Positions 1,529 through 15,819 of a stretch of DNA of 32,000 nucleotides are shown here, piece after piece. The position numbers were made by a program, and so were the translations under genes. Source of the DNA: Geotalea uraniireducens Rf4. GTDB taxonomy: Bacteria > Desulfobacterota > Desulfuromonadia > Geobacterales > Geobacteraceae. Each line of letters starts with the position of its first letter. Within the stretch, counting starts at the first letter, position 1. The notes below the pieces were generated by a model, which was given only the letters and a program-made list of their open reading frames with translations, was not told the origin of the DNA and did no database searches. Where the stretch lies: NCBI RefSeq assembly GCF_000016745.1, contig NC_009483.1, forward strand, positions 450,001-482,000. The letters run 5' to 3'.

Positions 1529-4500
1529 TCATTTGCGGTTTACCACAATGCTGCTTGACACTTTCCAGGCACTGTCGGCGTAACCTGTCTTGGTCGCCTT
1601 CACCCTGAAGGTGTACGTTCCTCTTGCTGGGACAGTGAGATTCGCCCAGGTGTAAGGCCCTCTGAAGGCGGAGGTATAGGCGCCGTTGTCCTTGCTGTAC
1701 TCCAGAACGTAGGTCACCCCGCTAACATTGCTGCGGCTCCAGCTTACCTGGAAACTCCCCGTGGTGCTGCTCGCCGGCACGCTGATCGAGGCGGGGGCGC
1801 CGCAGATCAATGTTACCGAGCAGCTTTTGGTTGCCGAGTAGGCGCTGTCGGTGTAACCCGTCTTGGCCGCCTTCACCCTGAAGGTGTATGTCCCGCTGGC
1901 GGGGACAGTAAGGTTCGCCCAGGTGTAGGTCCCTTTGTAGGCGGAGGTGTAGGCGCCGTTGTCCTTGCTGTACTCCAGAACGTAGGTCACCCCGCTGACA
2001 TTGCTGGGGCTCCAGCTTACCTGGAAACTCCCCGTGGTATTGCCTGACGGCACGCTGATCGAGGCGGGGGCGCCGCAGATCAATGTTACCGAGCAGCTTT
2101 TGGTTGCCGAGTAGGCGCTGTCTGTGTAACCCGTCTTGGCCGCCTTCACCCTGAAGGTATACGTCCCGCTGGCGGGGACGGTAAGGTTCGCCCAGGTGTA
2201 GGTCCCGCTGTAGGCGGAGGTGTAGGCGCCGTTGTCCTTGCTGTACTCCAGAACGTAGGTCACCCCGCTGACATTGCTGGGGCTCCAGCTTACCTGGAAA
2301 CTCCCCGTGGTATTGCCTGACGGCACGCTGATCGAGGCGGGGGCGCCGCAGATCAATGTTACCGAGCAGCTTTTGGTTGCCGAGTAGGCGCTGTCTGTGT
2401 AACCCGTCTTGGCCGCCTTCACCCTGAAGGTGTACGTTCCGCTGGCGGGGACAGTAAGGTTCGCCCAGGTGTAGGTTCCGTTGTAGGCGGAGGTGTAGGC
2501 GCCGTTGTCCTTGCTGTACTCCAGAACGTAGGTCACCCCGCTAACATTGCTGGGGCTCCAGCTTACCTGGAAACTCCCCGTGGTATTGCCTGACGGCACG
2601 CTGATCGAGGCGGGGGCGCCGCAGATCAATATTACCGAGCAGCTTTTGGTTGCCGAGTAGGCGCTGTCTGTGTAACCCGTCTTGGCCGCCTTCACCCTGA
2701 AGGTGTACGTTCCGCTGGCGGGGACAGTAAGGTTCGCCCAGGTGTAGGTCCCTTTGTAGGCGGAGGTGTAGGCGCCGTTGTCCTTGCTGTACTCCAGAAC
2801 GTAGGTCACCCCGCTAACATTGCTGGGGCTCCAGCTTACCTGGAAACTCCCCGTGGTATTGCCTGACGGCACGCTGATCGAGGCGGGGGCGCCGCAGATC
2901 AATGTTACCGAGCAGCTTTTGGTTGCCGAGTAGGCGCTGTCTGTGTAACCCGTCTTGGCCGCCTTCACCCTGAAGGTGTATGTCCCGCTGGCGGGGACAG
3001 TAAGGTTCGCCCAGGTGTAGGTTCCGTTGTAGGCGGAGGTGTAGGCGCCGTTGTCCTTGCTGTACTCCAGAACGTAGGTCACCCCGCTAACATTGCTGGG
3101 GCTCCAGCTTACCTGGAAACTCCCCGTGGTATTGCCTGACGGCACGCTGATCGAGGCGGGGGCGCCGCAGATCAATGTTACCGAGCAGCTTCTGGTTGCC
3201 GAGTAGGCGCTGTCTGTGTAACCCGTCTTGGCCGCCTTCACCCTGAAGGTGTATGTCCCGCTGGCGGGGACAGTAAGGTTCGCCCAGGTGTAGGTTCCGT
3301 TGTAGGCGGAGGTGTAGGCGCCGTTGTCCTTGCTGTACTCCAGAACGTAGGTTACCCCGCTAACGTTGCTGGGGCTCCAGCTTACCTGGAAACTCCCCGT
3401 GGTATTGCCTGCCGGCACGTTGATCGAGGAGGGGGGGGCAAGTTGGGGATTAGGCAATGTAATCTGATTTCCGGCAAGGGTATTGTTGTTCTTGTTTGTT
3501 TCAACCAGCCGATTCGTGTAATCAGCGCAGGCAATAAGGTACAGGGATCCGCCGGGCGCTGTAGGGGGAATGGGTGCCCGGGTTGTCCCACTGGGGCAGG
3601 TTCCGGCTGCGATAGACGCCACGTTCCGGCTGCCGATCAGCATGTCATCTGAAGAGAGGTTCTGGTCGCTGGAGAGGTAGAATCCGACCGAAAATCCCGT
3701 GGCATCGCCCGGACCGCCATTGCAGACAGTATCAGTGATCGTGATCGTGCTCCCCTGGACGGCGGAGGGCGGCCCTGCAACACTCTGCACGAACAGATCG
3801 GATGGTTGGAGACGCGTGACCGTGATGGTGAGGGATGTCGTCTTGCCAAGGGTATCGGTCGCCGCTACCGTGAAACCGTTGTCCCCCACTTGCAAAGCCA
3901 CTGGAAGACTGTAGTAGCCGTCGCTTGGCCGGTAGTTGGCCACGGTTCCGTTGATCGTCACCGAGCTCACCCCCGATGGATCGGTACACACTCCGGTGAT
4001 GACGGTGGAGGGCTGGTAGGTCGTGCTTCCCTCTGAGGAAGTAACGGTCAGGGATGGGGGGAGGTTCAACGTCGTAAATAAGATGGCACTGCTGCCAGCC
4101 GTATTTCCCGCTTCATCGGTGGATTTTGCCGCAACATGGTAAGTCGCTGCTTCCAGCAAGGCGGTGAGGCGCATGCTGTGTTCTGTTGCCAGCTTCTTGT
4201 CGGCGGACACCCCTCCCATGGCCGGGGTGTCGCCGTAATTAAGCACCGAGTTTGCCGGTTCGTTGGTGGTCCAGGTAATGGTCGCCGCAGTGTCGGTGAT
4301 GCCGGTGACGGCGAGGTTCGAGATGGCCGGCGGGACATTGTCCACAAAAGCTGCGGCTGTTACCGTTGCCGATTTCCCCGAGCCGTCGTTGGCATCATGG
4401 TAGATGGCAGTGATGGTATCGCCGTCGGCACCCTGGAGCCGGCCGTCGCCGGGAACGACCGGTGCGGCTGCAATAGGAATGCTTCCGGAAAAAATGGCGA

Positions 4501-6709
4501 TATTCGGGGCGGATTCGGTGAGGACGACCGTCTCCCCGGACGATTCTGCAGTGCTGACAACGAGTATCGGCACCTGCTCCACCTTGGTCGGATCACTGTT
4601 CAGATCACGGTCGGCTATCTGTATCTGGAGAGTGCTGCTGGAATTGTACCTCTGCCTGTCGAGGCTGATCGTTCCCCGGGATGTTACCCCCGAAGCCCCG
4701 GTGATGGCGAGGGCAAAGGGTTGTGGAGCGTAGGGAACGTTGTAGCCTGTGACGGAGACCGTGTATATTCCGGGAACCGGTGCCTGGACCAGGACCTGCT
4801 CCTCGACGTTGAGCCGATCAGGAGTGCCGCCGGCAAACGATTCGCCGTTGGTAAAGGCATTTCCCGTCAGAACCGTTCCGTCGGGGGTACTCACCGCCAG
4901 GTCGAGGTCGTTAACTATTGCTTTTACCGCGCCGATGGTCCCTGGGTAGTCGGTCCAGACCAGGGTTACCTTGAAGGGCTGCCCGCCCGGCACCAGGAAC
5001 TGCCTGCTCCAGTTCTTGTCCGTCCCAAGTCCGCCCCCCTCGTCCACCACTGCAAGTCTCCCGGCCTCCCCGGCAAAGGGGAGCGCGTTGGCGAGATTGA
5101 TCCTTCCCCAACCCTGGCCGGTGGCGGGGATCGGGCCACCGGTGCCGGTTCCGGTCATGTTCTGGGCGCTGTTGACAACCACCGCCTTGACCAGGGCGGC
5201 CGAAGGGGTGAACGCATTGATCGGGGTGGCGATGCCCAAGGGGTGGAAGCCGTCGATGAAATACTGACGGACCAGCGCAGCAGCTCCGGCTACGGCCGGC
5301 GTGGCCATGGATGTGCCGCTCATGCCGAGCGTGCCGTTGTTGGAACTGTCTTTCAAGCCGTCAGAATCGGCGGAGATGATGCCATAGCCGGGTGCGGTCA
5401 CCGTCGGCTTGATCCGACCGTCAGCGGTTGGGCCGTTACTGCTGAACGAAGCCATGTTCTCGGCACTGCTGCCGTTATAGGTGGCACCGACGCTGATGAC
5501 ATTCTTGGCGGTCGCCGGGTTGCCGACCGTGGATAACCCCGGCCCGGCGTTGCCGTTGGCGAACAAAGCAAGGAATTCCTTGTGTTCCCACAGGAAGCGG
5601 TCGGCGCTCGCCGCGAAGGAACTGTAGGACCCGTCGTCGTTTCCCCAGCTGTTAGTGTGGAAACGAGCCCCGACGTTGTAAGCGGCAGTGAACATGAGCC
5701 CCAGGTCATCGGGGGGATAGACTGCGTTGCTTCCTCCCGGCGTCAGATCCTGTATGAAAACCCGGGCCTTGGGCGCCATGCCGTTGGCATTGGAGAGTCC
5801 GTCCACCGGCGTGCGGTCGCCTGCCACCGTGTCCGTAACGTGAGTCCCGTGGCCCGGGGTGCTGGCATCGTAGTCGTCGCCGTAGGTCGTGTCGTAGCCG
5901 ACAATCTTCCGGTGCCCCGTGCCGATCGGCGCCCCGGCCGGGTCACGGAACCATGGCATGTCGTAGTCGAGCCCGGTATCGCCGATACCTATGATCTGGC
6001 CCTCGCCGTGGATCTTCTGGTCCCATATCTCCGTGTTATCGGGGATGTCGGTCTGGATCACCCAACGCGTCGTATCATTGAAAAGCTGCATGTCGAAGTG
6101 CTCGTCAATCCAGCTTACTTCCTCGATAGCCGCAAGCTTTGCAATGGACGTTGTGTCGACAGCCACCCGGAGTGTATCGCGGCCCACGTCGAGAACATCT
6201 CCCTCCATCTGCTGCACCACGGCCAGCACGTCGCGCACGTTGGCAGGGTCATCGAGCCTCAGGTGGATCCTGATCTTCTCGCCCGATGGCCGGGCAGTCG
6301 CCTTCTCCCGGAGCTTTTCGCGAAGCTTGTGGGCCGGTTTGAAACGGACCACTCCCTCGATGTACGGAAGTTTCTTCACGGCTTTTTTCGCAGTGTCATC
6401 CATGGTTGCCAGAAAGGCAAAATCGGGGAGGTAATCGAGAAGCCGGCACCCCAGCTCCTCCACTTTCGCTTTTTCCTCCTCGTGAATCGGCCCGGTAAAC
6501 TGGACGACCCACTTGCGTCGGCCCTTGTCCACTCTGGGTTCCAGGATCTCCGGCACCGCCGGTTCCTTCCCCTTCACGTCTATGACAATCCCATTGATCT
6601 GCACCTTGTGCTTCGAAAACTCTTTCGCCCAGGCTGGGCTTCCTCCCAGATACAGCAGAACGATGAAGAAGACCGATAGCGAGGCGCATCTCTTGATCTG
6701 GCCGCACAT
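1529..6709 (-). CDS. Secreted multidomain subtilisin-family (S8) serine protease, 1726 aa: signal peptide, propeptide-like domains, S8 catalytic domain, beta-sandwich, Fn3/Ig-like and CARDB-like domains, then 7 tandem Fn3-like repeats
   Basis: Catalytic motifs GIGDTGLD (Asp), HGTHVTDTVAG (His), NSWG (Asn) and GTSMATPAVAG (Ser). The likely start is the ATG at 6709 (MCGQIKRCASLSVFFIVLLYLGGSPAWA signal peptide), preceded by GGAAGGAGG. The longest ORF extends to 6772. Confidence 0.9.
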   Translation of the reverse strand: MCGQIKRCASLSVFFIVLLYLGGSPAWAKEFSKHKVQINGIVIDVKGKEPAVPEILEPRVDKGRRKWVVQFTGPIHEEEKAKVEELGCRLLDYLPDFAFLATMDDTAKKAVKKLPYIEGVVRFKPAHKLREKLREKATARPSGEKIRIHLRLDDPANVRDVLAVVQQMEGDVLDVGRDTLRVAVDTTSIAKLAAIEEVSWIDEHFDMQLFNDTTRWVIQTDIPDNTEIWDQKIHGEGQIIGIGDTGLDYDMPWFRDPAGAPIGTGHRKIVGYDTTYGDDYDASTPGHGTHVTDTVAGDRTPVDGLSNANGMAPKARVFIQDLTPGGSNAVYPPDDLGLMFTAAYNVGARFHTNSWGNDDGSYSSFAASADRFLWEHKEFLALFANGNAGPGLSTVGNPATAKNVISVGATYNGSSAENMASFSSNGPTADGRIKPTVTAPGYGIISADSDGLKDSSNNGTLGMSGTSMATPAVAGAAALVRQYFIDGFHPLGIATPINAFTPSAALVKAVVVNSAQNMTGTGTGGPIPATGQGWGRINLANALPFAGEAGRLAVVDEGGGLGTDKNWSRQFLVPGGQPFKVTLVWTDYPGTIGAVKAIVNDLDLAVSTPDGTVLTGNAFTNGESFAGGTPDRLNVEEQVLVQAPVPGIYTVSVTGYNVPYAPQPFALAITGASGVTSRGTISLDRQRYNSSSTLQIQIADRDLNSDPTKVEQVPILVVSTAESSGETVVLTESAPNIAIFSGSIPIAAAPVVPGDGRLQGADGDTITAIYHDANDGSGKSATVTAAAFVDNVPPAISNLAVTGITDTAATITWTTNEPANSVLNYGDTPAMGGVSADKKLATEHSMRLTALLEAATYHVAAKSTDEAGNTAGSSAILFTTLNLPPSLTVTSSEGSTTYQPSTVITGVCTDPSGVSSVTINGTVANYRPSDGYYSLPVALQVGDNGFTVAATDTLGKTTSLTITVTRLQPSDLFVQSVAGPPSAVQGSTITITDTVCNGGPGDATGFSVGFYLSSDQNLSSDDMLIGSRNVASIAAGTCPSGTTRAPIPPTAPGGSLYLIACADYTNRLVETNKNNNTLAGNQITLPNPQLAPPSSINVPAGNTTGSFQVSWSPSNVSGVTYVLEYSKDNGAYTSAYNGTYTWANLTVPASGTYTFRVKAAKTGYTDSAYSATRSCSVTLICGAPASISVPSGNTTGSFQVSWSPSNVSGVTYVLEYSKDNGAYTSAYNGTYTWANLTVPASGTYTFRVKAAKTGYTDSAYSATKSCSVTLICGAPASISVPSGNTTGSFQVSWSPSNVSGVTYVLEYSKDNGAYTSAYKGTYTWANLTVPASGTYTFRVKAAKTGYTDSAYSATKSCSVILICGAPASISVPSGNTTGSFQVSWSPSNVSGVTYVLEYSKDNGAYTSAYNGTYTWANLTVPASGTYTFRVKAAKTGYTDSAYSATKSCSVTLICGAPASISVPSGNTTGSFQVSWSPSNVSGVTYVLEYSKDNGAYTSAYSGTYTWANLTVPASGTYTFRVKAAKTGYTDSAYSATKSCSVTLICGAPASISVPSGNTTGSFQVSWSPSNVSGVTYVLEYSKDNGAYTSAYKGTYTWANLTVPASGTYTFRVKAAKTGYTDSAYSATKSCSVTLICGAPASISVPASSTTGSFQVSWSRSNVSGVTYVLEYSKDNGAYTSAFRGPYTWANLTVPARGTYTFRVKATKTGYADSAWKVSSSIVVNRK
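1532..3442 (-). repeat. 7 x 273-bp (91-aa) near-identical in-frame tandem repeats inside the protease gene
   Basis: The landmark GCAGATCAAT recurs at 1802, 2075, 2348, 2621, 2894 and 3167, an exact 273-nt period. Protein units read GAPASISVPSGNTTGSFQVSWSPSNVSGVTYVLEYSKDNGAYTSAY[N/K/S]GTYTWANLTVPASGTYTFRVKAAKTGYTDSAYSATKSCSVTLIC. Confidence 0.95.
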
Positions 6710-8084: not shown

Positions 8085-8195
8085 AAAAAAGCCGGGGCAG
8101 AATATCCTGAGATAGTTCGGCAACCCGGCTGTCTTTTAAAGACCCTGTGGGCTTTCCGCCCCACCCTCGCGGGTGGTTTAGTAGTATCGCGTATC
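8085..8195 (-). promoter_or_regulatory. GEMM-I (cyclic-dinucleotide, c-di-GMP-I class) riboswitch with terminator expression platform, in the leader of 7429..8037
   Basis: The minus strand reads CUAAACC-ACCC-GCGA-GGGU-GGGGCGGAAAGCC-CACAGGGUCU-UUAAA-AGACAGCCGGGUUGCCGAA. It shows a GNRA-capped P1 and the conserved GGAAAGCC and AGCCGGGUUGCCG blocks. The 3' aptamer strand AGCCGGG can instead pair with CCCGGCU followed by UUUUUU (8085-8130). Confidence 0.8.
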
Positions 8196-12111: not shown

Positions 12112-12250
12112 ATGATTCGGGTTTCCGGAATGGCTGAGCGGGCCGGCCGGATGCTGTTTGCCAAGTTGCTGGACGAGGGGCTGTTGGTTTCACGTATGCC
12201 GAAGGGGCCGGTAAGGCTGGCATTTCCGACCCATGTGGCCGGATACCTTA
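12112..12250 (+). pseudogene. possible remnant of a Fic-family gene C-terminus (winged-helix-like tail)
   Basis: The translation ...GMAERAGRMLFAKLLDEGLLVSRMPKGPVRLAFPTHVAGYL resembles, from memory, the C-terminal tail of Fic/DOC proteins. No Fic core lies upstream, and the adjacent flank (11930-12050) is AT-rich. Confidence 0.2.
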
Positions 12251-13402
12251 AATCGACAGAAATCCGTTTGGAGCAAGACTGGTGGCGAGCATCACCATGT
12301 TGATCTCCCGGTGTTCCCGCCATGTTTCGGTCTCCCTGTTTCTCCACTCCAGCCAGAAACCCTCGATTTCCTCCGCAAGCGACAGGTACCCCGCGAGCGC
12401 TTCGATCTTCCGTAGCAGTGGGTTTTCCAGATTCTTCTCCGACCAACCTCGTAGCGGCACAATCACCTTCAGCCCGATCGAGAGCCCCAGCTCGCGGAAG
12501 GCCAGACGGTATGCGGCAGGATATTTGAGGGGATTGCCCTCCGCGAAGGCCTGCAACCCTGCCAGGGCCGCATCGACAATGGACTCCAAAAGGGACGTGT
12601 CCCTGAAGCCCCCCATGTCCGTCAGCTGCGCGATCCGCCATGCGTCCCACAAAAGGCCGCCGATACCGAGCGGATCGTCCGTTGACCATTCCTTCCCCCG
12701 GCAGATGGCGGCCATATCGGCGATCTCGGCCTTGAGATCGAACTGGAGCGACAGGCCGGGCGCTGCGGCCGAGGCCTGCAGCTCGCAGTAGGTGACGTAG
12801 CCGTCGAGGGGGTCGTGCTGCCCCATGGAGGGGACGAGTGGCCGGCTGAGGTCGATGCTCATTTTCCAGTACATCCGCTTTGCTCCACTCCGGGAAGCAG
12901 GGACGAAGGCGGCATGCGCCGTCTGCGCCAGTTCCATGGCCCACCCGGCGTAGGTCGCAACACCGGTGACCCGGCTCATGCGGCTAAGCGCATGCATCCA
13001 TTTGGTCAGGTAGTGGAAGTACTGCCCGTCCTGTTCCCATTCCAGAGGCTCGTCGGGTGGCTCGCCGGGCCCGCGTTCGTTCAGCCTCTTGCCGATCCGC
13101 AGGCCGCCGCGGGTCGGGTGCGATTCCCCCTCGGCTTCGTCCAGTCCGCTGATCCAGCCGTTGCGGGGATCGTCGCTGCGGTGGCGGCCGAGGATGTGAT
13201 GTACCTGGTCCACGAGACGGAGGGCGAGATCCAGCCACTCCCCGTCATTGGTCTGGCGGAACAGCTCCAGCAGGTTGCAGAGGGCGAAGGCATCCGTCCA
13301 GAGATAACGCCGCGGTGTTTTCCCTGGGGGGGAAACCCCGGTGAGAGCCGCATAGTCCAGCATGATCCCACGGACCTCTGCAATGGAGTTCTTTGGTTCC
13401 AT
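12248..13402 (-). CDS. conserved hypothetical protein (384 aa), function not recognised
   Basis: ORF 12248..13483. The ATG at 13402 (MEPKNSIAEVRG) is preceded by GGAGAA. It is a long ORF with ordinary residue composition. The overlapping ORFs 12057..12944 and 12815..13723 look like shadow frames. Confidence 0.75.
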   Translation of the reverse strand: MEPKNSIAEVRGIMLDYAALTGVSPPGKTPRRYLWTDAFALCNLLELFRQTNDGEWLDLALRLVDQVHHILGRHRSDDPRNGWISGLDEAEGESHPTRGGLRIGKRLNERGPGEPPDEPLEWEQDGQYFHYLTKWMHALSRMSRVTGVATYAGWAMELAQTAHAAFVPASRSGAKRMYWKMSIDLSRPLVPSMGQHDPLDGYVTYCELQASAAAPGLSLQFDLKAEIADMAAICRGKEWSTDDPLGIGGLLWDAWRIAQLTDMGGFRDTSLLESIVDAALAGLQAFAEGNPLKYPAAYRLAFRELGLSIGLKVIVPLRGWSEKNLENPLLRKIEALAGYLSLAEEIEGFWLEWRNRETETWREHREINMVMLATSLAPNGFLSI

Positions 13403-13723
13403 GTTATTTTCTCCACGGCCGTCTTCTCTGTTCGGAGGCATCGGGACGATCCACGCACCCCGGAAACGCAAACGGCCGCACATACCGAAGGTTCTCCTTC
13501 GGCAGTCCGGCCGTCTTCCACTGCGAAGACCCGCGACTTTCCGCCCCCTTCTTGCGGAGGGTTCGGCTTTATCGTGAGGCGAATTAGAAAATATTACAAT
13601 ATAGTGGCAATTGTATCGCCGCCCCTCCCGCTGTCAAGGTTGCATTTCCCGCGCAGATGCACGAGCGCGTGGGGTTGCGGTACTGCCGGGAATGGTCACC
13701 GAATTCTGGGAACAGCATACTAA

Positions 13724-14395
13724 TTATTGCTCCAACAACTTCCGGGCCAAACTGTGTAATTCTGAATTTGCCAGCGCAACCACTTTTTTCTTAACCGAAC
13801 GGGAATAATACTCCTGTTCGGTCTTTGTCAGAGGGAGGCCTTCGAGTTTCTTCTTGAACAATTCTTTCTGTTTCGGCGAAAACACCTGCGACAGTGCATA
13901 GGCTAGAGAAAATTCTTCGTACTTTTCTTTGCGCCGCCTGGTCTTATCTACGTTCTGTTCAAAATAGAGTTCAAACAATCCTTTCAGTCGTTCCGGGTCG
14001 AGCTTTACATCGTCCCAGGCTAGTGCTTGATTGTGAGCAAGGCAGTTTCTCCATTTTTTAACCAGTGATTTGTCTTCGCTGGAGAGGTTTTTCTTAAGCT
14101 TGCTCGACCATGTAAATGTCAGGTGATAGAACGAATACAGAGACGAGGACAAAAGCAATAGCCGGTGGAAGTGATCTTTGTCTTCCCTGCCAGGCAACAG
14201 TTGCTCAACCAGTTCAGGTGCAAACTGATAGCTGTCAGCGGCATTAGCCAGCAACACAGGGAATCCTTCCCAAAGTCGGGTGTCTTGGCTCTTCACAACC
14301 TCCGCTAAAGTTTCATTGACATTCAGTTCTTCACTCGGTTCAAACATCGGAAATCCGAGCTTCGATAGGCTCTTCATAAGTTTCTCGTCAGTCAT
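13724..14395 (-). CDS. HEPN-motif protein (223 aa), second gene of the NTase/HEPN pair
   Basis: KKW-RNCLAH-NQ (nt 14033-14050) is an Rx4H motif of the RNxxAH kind seen in HepT/DUF86. The composition looks all-helical. Its ATG at 14395 overlaps the upstream gene end as TTATGACTGA (8-nt overlap). The longest ORF reaches 14422. Confidence 0.65.
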   Translation of the reverse strand: MTDEKLMKSLSKLGFPMFEPSEELNVNETLAEVVKSQDTRLWEGFPVLLANAADSYQFAPELVEQLLPGREDKDHFHRLLLLSSSLYSFYHLTFTWSSKLKKNLSSEDKSLVKKWRNCLAHNQALAWDDVKLDPERLKGLFELYFEQNVDKTRRRKEKYEEFSLAYALSQVFSPKQKELFKKKLEGLPLTKTEQEYYSRSVKKKVVALANSELHSLARKLLEQ

Positions 14396-14993
14396 AAAGG
14401 CCTTTCTCCCGCAGTAACTCAATGAAGTGCTGAATGTGTGGTTTCAGCCGGTCTTCTGCAATGTCATAGCTGACCATTTCATAGAAGTGTTCGACAAGCC
14501 TATCTATGTTAATATGTGCTATGCGGGCTTCAGCCAGGCTCAGACAATCCTCAAAATCAACCCTGGTTCCACGCATCAACTTGCTGGAAATCAGATCATA
14601 CTCGTTCAAAATGCCAATATACAGGGATGAGTATTCCTTGAAGACTGTATGCCTTCCTTTTTCCAGCGGAGATGCCAGCAACCCCGTCGTGTGAATGGAA
14701 TTTCCGCGAAAGATGTCGAACTGGAATATTTCACCGGAGCGTTTCCAGCCGGAACCGGTCATTGCTTCATAGCCCAATACCCTTAGCTGTTTCGTCAGGT
14801 ACTCATACTCTTGTATGTTGGGGGTCATGAAATCGACGTCTTTTGTCGATGGCTTGACTCCCAGCAATGTCATGGCAGTTCCACCGCAAGCAATCAGGTG
14901 AACTTTACGCTTGAGGAAGCGGTTCCATTCTTCCAGAATGTCAAGAAGCTGGTTTTTGTCTAGCCTATATATCATTTGTACCTTATCATACAA
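14388..14993 (-). CDS. Pol-beta-fold nucleotidyltransferase, AbiEii/DUF6036-like (195-201 aa)
   Basis: LIACGGTAMTLLGVKPSTKDVDFM fits the hG[GS]-x13-DxD motif (nt 14832-14885). A further acidic site is at FQFDIF, and the helical tail contains YDLISSKLMRGTRVDFEDC. The start is either the TTG at 14993 or the ATG at 14975, which is preceded by AAGG. Confidence 0.7.
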   Translation of the reverse strand: MYDKVQMIYRLDKNQLLDILEEWNRFLKRKVHLIACGGTAMTLLGVKPSTKDVDFMTPNIQEYEYLTKQLRVLGYEAMTGSGWKRSGEIFQFDIFRGNSIHTTGLLASPLEKGRHTVFKEYSSLYIGILNEYDLISSKLMRGTRVDFEDCLSLAEARIAHINIDRLVEHFYEMVSYDIAEDRLKPHIQHFIELLREKGLYD

Positions 14994-15055
14994 TAAATTG
15001 TATTGATTTATACAAGCTATTGTATATTTTTATACAAAATAGGTAGTTTTGTCAA
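14988..15055 (-). promoter_or_regulatory. sigma70-type promoter with overlapping palindromic operator-like sites for the NTase/HEPN operon
   Basis: The minus strand reads TTGACA (15055-15050), a 15-17 nt spacer, then TATAAAAAT. Palindromes are TATACAA-GCTA-TTGTATA (15009-15026) and ATACAAT-AA-ATTGTAT (14988-15003), with an extra TATACAA half-site at 15031-15037. Confidence 0.45.
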
Positions 15056-15147
15056 GGGATGTGTTGTTTCACCTTTGAAGGACTTGGAGAACGCTACCCT
15101 GTCAGGCTTTGCAATTGATGATTTGCCACAAGAGCTTTGATCCGGAT

Positions 15148-15774
15148 TCAAGCCTTCCAAACAAAGAAAACGGTTATCCCCAGTAAGCCATACAAAAAAA
15201 GGCTTTTCCAGTTAAATGCCACTTTAAGGTCTTGCGCTGAAGGCAACGATTCGTACAGCAAAAGGAAAACGACAAAATAGAGGCCCAAGATCGAGCCGAG
15301 GCTCGGCGCAAACCATTTGTTCCAATGTCGATACACCATAAAGGCGACTGCCACCAACAGCAAAGGCGCCAGGCCGATTGGCAGTGAATTGATGGCGTTC
15401 AGCTTTCTGAATCGGACCGAACCCATTACCCATTTGCCGTTACCGTCTGATTTCGGAAAAAGAGAAAAGCCGGTGGGGCTTGCAAAAAGGAGCAGCCCAA
15501 CGAGAAGATGACAGATTTCGTGCAGGACCACCCCGATGAAATTCCAGATGCCTATGATGAAGATCCCGCATTCACGGCTTCTGTGATTCAGTGTTATTAA
15601 AAGAAGAACGAGGAGGATGCCACAGAAGTGAAAAAATGAAAGCGAGTTGAATACATGCATGAGCAATAGATTATAGCATTTACCGTCATGGGGCAACTGT
15701 AGAATAGCTTCCTGCCTGACAATGCGCTTCACGGGGTTGCCGTTTTTTCTTACCTCTGGTATATATAGGCTCAA
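15148..15774 (-). CDS. polytopic membrane protein with an intramembrane HExxH motif (DUF3267/zincin-like putative metalloprotease)
   Basis: About 5 hydrophobic segments. VVLHEICHLLVG (HEICH at nt 15508-15522) sits inside a predicted TM helix. The gene is low-GC. The start is uncertain: TTG at 15774 or ATG at 15660. Confidence 0.6.
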   Translation of the reverse strand: MSLYIPEVRKNGNPVKRIVRQEAILQLPHDGKCYNLLLMHVFNSLSFFHFCGILLVLLLITLNHRSRECGIFIIGIWNFIGVVLHEICHLLVGLLLFASPTGFSLFPKSDGNGKWVMGSVRFRKLNAINSLPIGLAPLLLVAVAFMVYRHWNKWFAPSLGSILGLYFVVFLLLYESLPSAQDLKVAFNWKSLFLYGLLGITVFFVWKA

Positions 15775-15780
15775 GACGAA

Positions 15781-15819
15781 GGGCTAAGGACACAAGGTGG
15801 AACCTTGCGTCGTTAGCCC
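15781..15819. other. strong hairpin at the islet / gltB boundary
   Basis: GGGCTAAGGACACAAGG-TGGAA-CCTTGCGTCGTTAGCCC pairs at 15 of 17 positions. It lies between the divergent starts at 15774 (-) and 15850 (+). Confidence 0.5.

Follow-up and report, generated by a model that had tools for sequence, protein, structure and literature searches.

A DUF6036 nucleotidyltransferase and its overlapping helical partner in Geotalea uraniireducens: a probable MenAT/AbiE-like toxin-antitoxin module with reversed gene order

In Geotalea uraniireducens Rf4, two overlapping genes on the minus strand, referred to here as A and B, lie in a low-GC islet within the 32 000-nucleotide stretch of DNA that was analysed (the window). 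Gene A encodes a nucleotidyltransferase (NTase) of the DUF6036 family with a MenT-type fold, gene B encodes an all-helical protein, and where one partner of an A-B pair has decayed with the other intact, it is A that is lost in 15 loci and B in one. It is probable that the two genes form a toxin-antitoxin (TA) module similar to MenAT and AbiE in which the gene order is reversed, with A as the toxin and B as an antitoxin and autorepressor.

14975..14388, minus strand: gene A, 195 aa, ATG at MIYRLDK; ABQ24607.1, named 'DUF6036 family nucleotidyltransferase' by NCBI; proposed toxin.
14395..13724, minus strand: gene B, 223 aa, ATG at MTDEKL; ABQ24606.1, 'hypothetical protein'; all-helical; proposed antitoxin and autorepressor.
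14388..14395, minus strand: overlap of A and B, ATGACTGA, 8 nt, in which the ATG of B overlaps the final codons and TGA stop of A; translational coupling.

A preliminary description of this DNA had reported a TA-like gene pair sharing an ATG/stop junction, placed in a low-GC islet and assignable to no named system, and each of these points is borne out. The minus-strand junction reads ...CTTTATGACTGA..., with the identical 8-nt overlap in 42 of 76 related loci, and A and B behave as a translationally coupled, autonomous pair. GC content is approximately 45-48 % across roughly 13600-15800, against 60-67 % on each flank, and the pair belongs to no named system of PADLOC, NCBIfam or Pfam. Of the two lengths that had been offered for the first protein, 195 and 201 aa, the shorter stands: the homologues, 195 aa long and beginning M-x-Y-R-L, set the start codon, and ABQ24607.1 is a 195-aa protein identical to the product of gene A. 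The 201-aa version, from a TTG, would begin inside an operator palindrome and is absent from the protein collection. Nearly all B homologues are 223 aa and most full-length members of the family are about 220-230 aa. Since 2167 homologous clusters at 90 % identity were found for B and 1287 for A (E <= 0.001), neither is a chance open reading frame (ORF).

The roles proposed for the two proteins come from the order in which the partners are lost. Each gene at each locus was assigned to one of three classes (intact, disrupted, or truncated by the end of a contig), both in a set selected through B, consisting of genome contigs, and in a set selected through A, consisting of metagenome contigs.

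B-selected loci: both intact, 43; A disrupted and B intact, 13 (A not detected in 2 further, distant loci); A intact and B disrupted, 1.
A-selected loci: both intact, 31; A disrupted and B intact, 2; A intact and B disrupted, 0.

Within the A-selected set, B is intact in 31 of the 31 loci that have an intact A, and in two loci A is deleted while B is intact. Overall, A is broken with B intact in 15 loci and the reverse is seen in one (15:1 in a sign test, p = 5e-4; p = 0.003 in a Fisher test of one selection against the other). The changes in A arose independently of one another and include premature stops (L019, L026, L045, L048), frameshifts (L023, L033, L036/L037, L054), and large deletions (L009, L018, L025, L050, L132, L133); L017 may represent divergence rather than disruption. 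Such one-sided decay suggests that A, rather than B, is the harmful partner, because a toxic A can be lost at any time, while B cannot be lost as long as A is active. The pattern is the one predicted for a TA pair with A as the toxin, and is the opposite of the polarity in MntA/HepT.

Gene A encodes a Pol-beta-type NTase of the DUF6036 family, as the signature recognised in the preliminary description (CGGTAMTLLGVKPSTKDVDF) had suggested. The protein scores 29.3 bits against Pfam DUF6036 (PF19502; cut-off 23.6), a model that is matched by all 62 of the A homologues scanned, the best at E 1.2e-10. There is no matching NCBIfam model, and a sequence-profile search of the PDB with A returned nothing useful. 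The AlphaFold2 model of A (predicted local distance difference test, pLDDT, 95.3; predicted template-modelling score, pTM, 0.90) has an NTase fold, and its best Foldseek match in the PDB is Mycobacterium tuberculosis MenT1 (8an5_B; E 6.9e-5, probability 1.0, TMq 0.60). This is followed by LnuA, MenT4, TM1012, ANT(2'')-Ia, and further MenT1 entries, with MenT4 6y56 (E 1.3e-4) and MenT1 8an4 and 8rr5 also within the top 14; among the 50 best PDB matches, none is described as MntA or as a minimal NTase antitoxin. The protein had been called oversized, which is so only in comparison with MntA, as A is the same size as MenT1, the chains of which have 184-195 residues.

14829..14888, minus strand: NTase motif I of A, residues 30-49, CGGTAMTLLGVKPSTKDVDF; invariant G32, S43, T44, D46, D48.
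14544..14582, minus strand: C-terminal conserved block of A, residues 132-144, KLMRGTRVDFEDC; invariant K132, R135, G136, D140, D143, C144.

In an alignment of 62 A sequences, which form two clades and are 35-96 % identical to the window protein, the invariant residues are C30, G32, T33, A34, K41, S43, T44, D46, D48, T96, T97, N124, D127, K132, R135, G136, D140, D143, and C144. The generic form of motif I is G-[GS]-x9-13-D-x-D, and A has this motif together with a Ser/Thr two residues before the first Asp. In MenT1, the key residues are T39, which is the auto-phosphorylation site, D41-x-D43, K137, and D152 (PMC11375011). By sequence position only, the T44-K-D46-V-D48 layout of A parallels T39-R-D41-x-D43 of MenT1, and S78 of MenT3 likewise compares with the Ser/Thr before the DxD of A. 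Further along, K132, R135, D140, and D143 of A are invariant, with a spacing that differs from that of K137 and D152 in MenT1, and positions 132-144 may correspond to MenT motifs III/IV, which hold the catalytic Lys and Asp.

The two families occur together and have diverged together. Among the 78 genome loci found via B, A is immediately upstream of B in all 43 in which both are intact, including those of a clade that is only 35-38 % identical to the window pair, and the NTase gene precedes its partner in every locus; the mirror-tree correlation between A and B is r = 0.95 overall and 0.86 in the main clade. When all flanking ORFs were clustered, no family was common to more than four loci and no conserved third gene was found. 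The three annotated contexts are otherwise unrelated; two of the three consist mostly of ordinary metabolic genes and are not defence islands, and in two of the three there are other TA pairs nearby. In these respects the pair behaves as an autonomous two-gene cassette that moves horizontally. No match to B was found in the PLSDB plasmids or the GenBank phages.

Several neighbours of the module in metagenome-assembled genomes (MAGs) are themselves of TA type. On one contig (L082), a canonical AbiEi_4/AbiEii pair (4710-6238, minus strand) lies 1.2 kb from the A-B module, with a PhdYeFM antitoxin gene further along, and in one other MAG a ParE toxin gene is near the module. In a Desulfuromonadales MAG (L083), a second NTase pair (3805-5030, minus strand) is located 2.4 kb from the module and has the antitoxin-first order, with a 176-aa protein followed by an overlapping 233-aa NTase. 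The motifs of this NTase are T-H-D-V-D-V and KLEAFxGRG...HDLEDI, and comparison by hhalign shows the pair to be weakly related to A (E 9e-4).

Upstream of A there are three 18-bp palindromes of the form TTGTAT-N6-ATACAA, exactly 22 bp apart, where none would be expected by chance in the window.

15026..15055, minus strand: sigma-70-like promoter, TTGACA, 18-nt spacer, AAAAAT; 10/12 matches.
15020..15037, unstranded: operator palindrome 1, TTGTATATTTTTATACAA; perfect match; overlaps the -10 hexamer.
14998..15015, unstranded: operator palindrome 2, TTGTATTGATTTATACAA; 22 bp from palindrome 1.
14976..14993, unstranded: operator palindrome 3, TTGTACCTTATCATACAA; one mismatch; abuts the ATG of A.

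The positions of the palindromes are conserved in related loci, most of which also have the -35 hexamer TTGACA in the corresponding position. All of the 53 loci with enough upstream sequence have one or more palindromes no further than 200 nt from A, and 47 have two or three; the spacing is exactly 22 bp in 54 out of 68 cases. Elsewhere, in the remaining 363 kb, only four matches occur. The clade at 35 % identity retains two palindromes, sited upstream of its TTGACA. A dimeric DNA-binding protein encoded by the module itself is the simplest explanation of this array, which would provide negative autoregulation through inverted repeats in the promoter. The obvious candidate for the part that binds the operator is the C-terminal domain of B, because it is conserved as strongly as the half-sites.

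The B family, with 405 representatives at 50 % identity, is found mostly in Thermodesulfobacteriota, for example in relatives of Geobacter, and no precomputed Pfam domain is recorded for any of the 120 listed B matches. The AlphaFold2 model of B (pLDDT 91.8) is all-helical apart from one small hairpin, with a long central helix at residues 134-171. Across 92 diverse aligned members (28-75 % identity), two regions are conserved.

14237..14284, minus strand: N-terminal motif of B, residues 38-53, DTRLWEGFPVLLANAA; R40 invariant; E43, F45, P46 near-invariant.
13727..13903, minus strand: basic C-terminal domain of B, residues 165-223, LSQxFSPKQKEL..LTKTEQEYYSRSVKKKVVALAN; proposed DNA-binding domain.

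At the N-terminus, the conserved residues are G14 and R40-L-x-E43-G-F45-P46-V-x-L-A-N-A. The C-terminal domain, which forms three helices in the model, shows the strongest conservation in the family, with the pattern L-S-Q-x-F-S-P-K-Q176-K-E-L...L-T-K191-T-E-x-E-Y196-x-S-R199-x-V-K203-K-K-x-x-A-L-A-N, in which K182, K191, T192, E193, E195, Y196, R199, and K203 are near-invariant. The domain may bear some resemblance to sigma region 4, although a Pfam scan of the isolated domain found neither a helix-turn-helix (HTH) family nor a sigma-70 region 4 family.

In a profile-guided scan of IMG/VR, three viral contigs were found to encode the C-terminal domain of B alone, with 42-48 % identity to residues ~157-221, in small proteins of 85, 132, and 138 aa.

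L134, 4950-5207, viral contig: small protein with the B C-terminal domain.
L135, 4794-5192, viral contig: small protein with the B C-terminal domain.
L136, 2842-3258, viral contig: small protein with the B C-terminal domain.

The N-terminus of the 132-aa protein resembles HNH_3 (23.6 bits and E 4e-5, slightly short of the cut-off of 24.8); in the 138-aa protein, a similar H-H-x-D-G-D-x-H-N motif is seen by eye. The occurrence of the domain alone or appended to what appears to be a nuclease is consistent with binding to nucleic acid. In L134 and L135, the domain gene comes, as judged by eye, after an apparent large structural gene and small membrane-protein genes.

In many loci B survives as remnants only, for the most part of its last ~60 residues (L002 686-883; L006 2973-3152; L062-L068). 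In L006, an extra copy of the C-terminal region is located in tandem directly after an intact B, in P0208 the C-terminus of A is fused in-frame to the B C-terminal domain, and P0263 is a 'mini-B' without the variable middle. A site-specific recombination site and a stand-alone gene were both considered for these fragments and rejected; the in-frame stops, fusions, and internal deletions are those of decayed remnants, and the excess of C-terminal fragments is partly an artefact of the scan patterns.

In the proposed mechanism, A would be a MenT-like NTase toxin that probably adds nucleotides to the 3′ acceptor ends of tRNA and so blocks translation, a target suggested by analogy with MenT1, MenT3, and AbiEii, on the basis of fold and motifs. 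B would neutralise A, either by sequestration or by inducing the auto-phosphorylation of T44. The latter is plausible because T44 is invariant and is located next to the D46-x-D48 metal site; antitoxin-induced auto-phosphorylation has been shown for MenT1, MenT3, and AbiEii, with MenA1 and MenA3 acting on their MenT partners. The N-terminal part of B (G14, R40-x-x-E43-G-F-P) may be the region that engages or neutralises A. Its C-terminal domain, rather than A or an A-B complex, probably binds the TTGTAT-N6-ATACAA palindromes as a dimer; these extend across the -10 region up to the start codon of A, and their occupation would repress the operon. Taken further, the joint proposal that DUF6036 is a second branch of MenT-like, tRNA-modifying toxins, distinct in sequence, and that B founds a new antitoxin family, lacking any structural relative that can be detected, with an N-terminal part that neutralises the toxin (possibly by inducing T44 auto-phosphorylation) and a new DNA-binding domain that reads TTGTAT-N6-ATACAA and is common to phage HNH endonucleases, is tentative, being conceivable but short of probable.

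The closest described system is MenAT1 (Rv0078B/Rv0078A) of M. tuberculosis. Its toxin is like A in size and fold (8an5_B) and has the same T-x-D-x-D active-site layout with a downstream K and D, it is a two-gene operon in a region of atypical composition, as here, and its antitoxin, like B, is unrelated to AbiEi. It differs in that A is in Pfam DUF6036, not DUF1814, in that menA1 is upstream of menT1, whereas the NTase gene is first here, in that MenA1 is a 7.4 kDa protein without a DNA-binding domain, whereas B has 223 aa and a basic C-terminal domain, and in the tandem operator array carried by the present operon. AbiE and MenAT3/MenAT4 also resemble the A-B pair, having an NTase toxin with a two-domain antitoxin of about 22 kDa and acting, as the A-B pair would, as TA or phage-defence modules. 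As here, there are inverted repeats in the AbiE promoter, through which AbiEi autoregulates. However, the antitoxin gene is first in AbiE, and in AbiEi and MenA3 a winged-helix DNA-binding domain is at the N-terminus and the antitoxicity domain at the C-terminus, whereas the basic domain of B is C-terminal and matches no known HTH family; no similarity was found by hhalign between B and an AbiEi_4 protein. What sets the A-B pair apart from MenAT1 is the Pfam family of the toxin, the gene order, the 223-aa partner with no structural relative detected, and the operator array. Because the MenA antitoxins already belong to several unrelated families, the B family would be a variant rather than a new category.

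A number of observations weigh against the assignment of the pair to a MenAT/AbiE-like module. There is no match of A to Pfam AbiEii/DUF1814 (PF08843) at E <= 1, nor of any of its 62 homologues at E <= 0.01, and comparison by hhalign with a bona fide Pfam-AbiEii protein, from L082, found nothing; the sole link of A to AbiEii by sequence is the weak PADLOC match (E 0.002, residues 7-76). In the structural comparison, LnuA (4fo1, E 8.3e-5), ANT(2'')-Ia (5cfu, E 2.4e-4), and TM1012 score nearly the same as MenT1. The gene order is the reverse of that in all of the described MenAT and AbiE systems. The C-terminal domain of B matches no known DNA-binding family, and searches with the structure of the whole chain gave no significant match, so the binding of the operator by B is put forward as an inference. 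Finally, the 15 losses of A include one event counted twice (L036 and L037), and the counts come from MAGs and metagenome contigs, in which some of the frameshifts found in long-read MAGs may be assembly errors. Assembly errors would, however, be expected to strike B at least as often as A, because B is the longer gene.

The near-equal scores of LnuA and ANT(2'')-Ia raise the possibility that this is not a TA system at all, and that A is instead a benign NTase that modifies small molecules or antibiotics, with B as its dedicated repressor. Like A, LnuA, ANT(2'')-Ia, and TM1012 are small NTases with a helical C-terminal domain (E 8e-5 to 8e-4 against A), the conserved operator array implies tight transcriptional control, and DUF6036 has no assigned function, with no papers in the literature searched that mention DUF6036, PF19502 or the protein accessions. 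The substrates of these enzymes are, however, small molecules, and to our knowledge their genes do not form overlapping pairs with that of a conserved partner. Neutral decay, or selection for an enzyme, predicts approximately equal losses of the two genes, which is not the 15:1 ratio seen. Features typical of TA modules are the 8-nt overlap, the strict mobility of the two genes through unrelated contexts and the presence, close to some copies, of other TA pairs. T44, which is invariant and precedes the DxD by two residues, corresponds to the auto-phosphorylation site of MenT. A benign NTase is considered unlikely.

It is likewise improbable that the module, with the same TA chemistry, serves primarily in abortive infection, as AbiE does, with B sensing phage or being depleted by it. 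AbiEii and the MenT toxins are homologous and AbiE is an abundant defence system; the module is located in a low-GC islet, one MAG copy is close to the AbiEi/AbiEii pair described above, and the C-terminal domain of B has phage-encoded relatives. Set against this, no PADLOC system model was matched beyond the weak AbiEii match, ordinary metabolic genes make up most of two of the three annotated contexts, and B has no match in the GenBank phages or PLSDB plasmids.

The preliminary description had drawn another comparison, with the gene order of the type VII HEPN/MNT system MntA/HepT. The sequence WRNCLAHNQ, which is indeed present at residues 115-123 of the 223-aa second protein, was read there as an RNxxAH form of the HEPN RNase motif.

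14033..14050, minus strand: RNCLAH, residues 116-121 of B; the putative HEPN motif; not conserved.

This interpretation is not supported. R116 is present in 21 of the 92 B homologues, H121 in 9, and both in only 7. Among the 120 closest relatives, 25 have K, S, L or Q in place of R116 and 18 have another residue in place of H121, whereas W115 and L119 are nearly fixed. HEPN_Swt1 matches B at 18.7 bits, under its cut-off of 27.5, and this match recurs in only 3 of the 92 members; the Cas13d model of PADLOC gives a weak match (E 7e-4), NCBIfam has no matches for the pair, and PHROGs returned only noise (E > 0.02). Neither Foldseek against the PDB and BFVD with the B model (no match at E < 0.1) nor a profile search of PDB sequences identified a relative, and no HEPN structure is named among the 50 PDB matches shown, all at E >= 1.1, one of which is labelled simply 'riboendonuclease' (8h4u, E 5.5). 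By the motif, profile, and structure tests run, B is not a HEPN protein. It is thus very improbable, and already largely refuted, that B is a HEPN RNase toxin and A an NTase antitoxin that nucleotidylates it: the pair is like mntA-hepT in that the NTase gene precedes its partner and the two overlap, and there are the RNCLAH of the window B and the weak HEPN_Swt1 and Cas13d matches, but R and H vary even within the close clade, B has neither the fold nor a conserved Rx4-6H motif, A is most similar to the MenT toxins and not to a minimal NTase, and it is A that is lost first, from which the polarity would be the opposite, with the NTase as the harmful partner.

Other features lie close to the module in the window. 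A 208-aa membrane-like ORF (15148-15774, minus strand) is in the same low-GC islet and adjoins the module promoter; it has only sub-threshold Pfam matches (Peptidase_M50B-like, SPW) and, in the clustering of flanking ORFs, does not accompany the A-B pair in other genomes. A c-di-GMP-I-GGC riboswitch (RF03167; 13497-13576, minus strand; 68.2 bits, E 2.7e-14) is located a short way downstream of gene B. A near-consensus promoter, TTGACA-16-TACAAT (13637-13610), lies ahead of it, and a 411-aa ORF without a Pfam match (12248-13483) comes after it. A second c-di-GMP-I riboswitch (RF01051) is present at 8116-8192 on the minus strand.

If the A-B pair is a MenAT/AbiE-like module in reversed order, a function open to testing would be provided for Pfam DUF6036 and for the large, unnamed B family, which has more than 2000 clusters at 90 % identity. 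The question of which partner decays first assigns the roles of toxin and antitoxin from sequence data alone, and is a method that can be reused for other pairs. The C-terminal region of B would represent a compact and apparently new DNA-binding domain with a defined 18-bp target, and the paradigm of the NTase toxin, as established for MenT and AbiEii, would be extended beyond DUF1814, to a system with a further unrelated antitoxin family and the reversed gene order.

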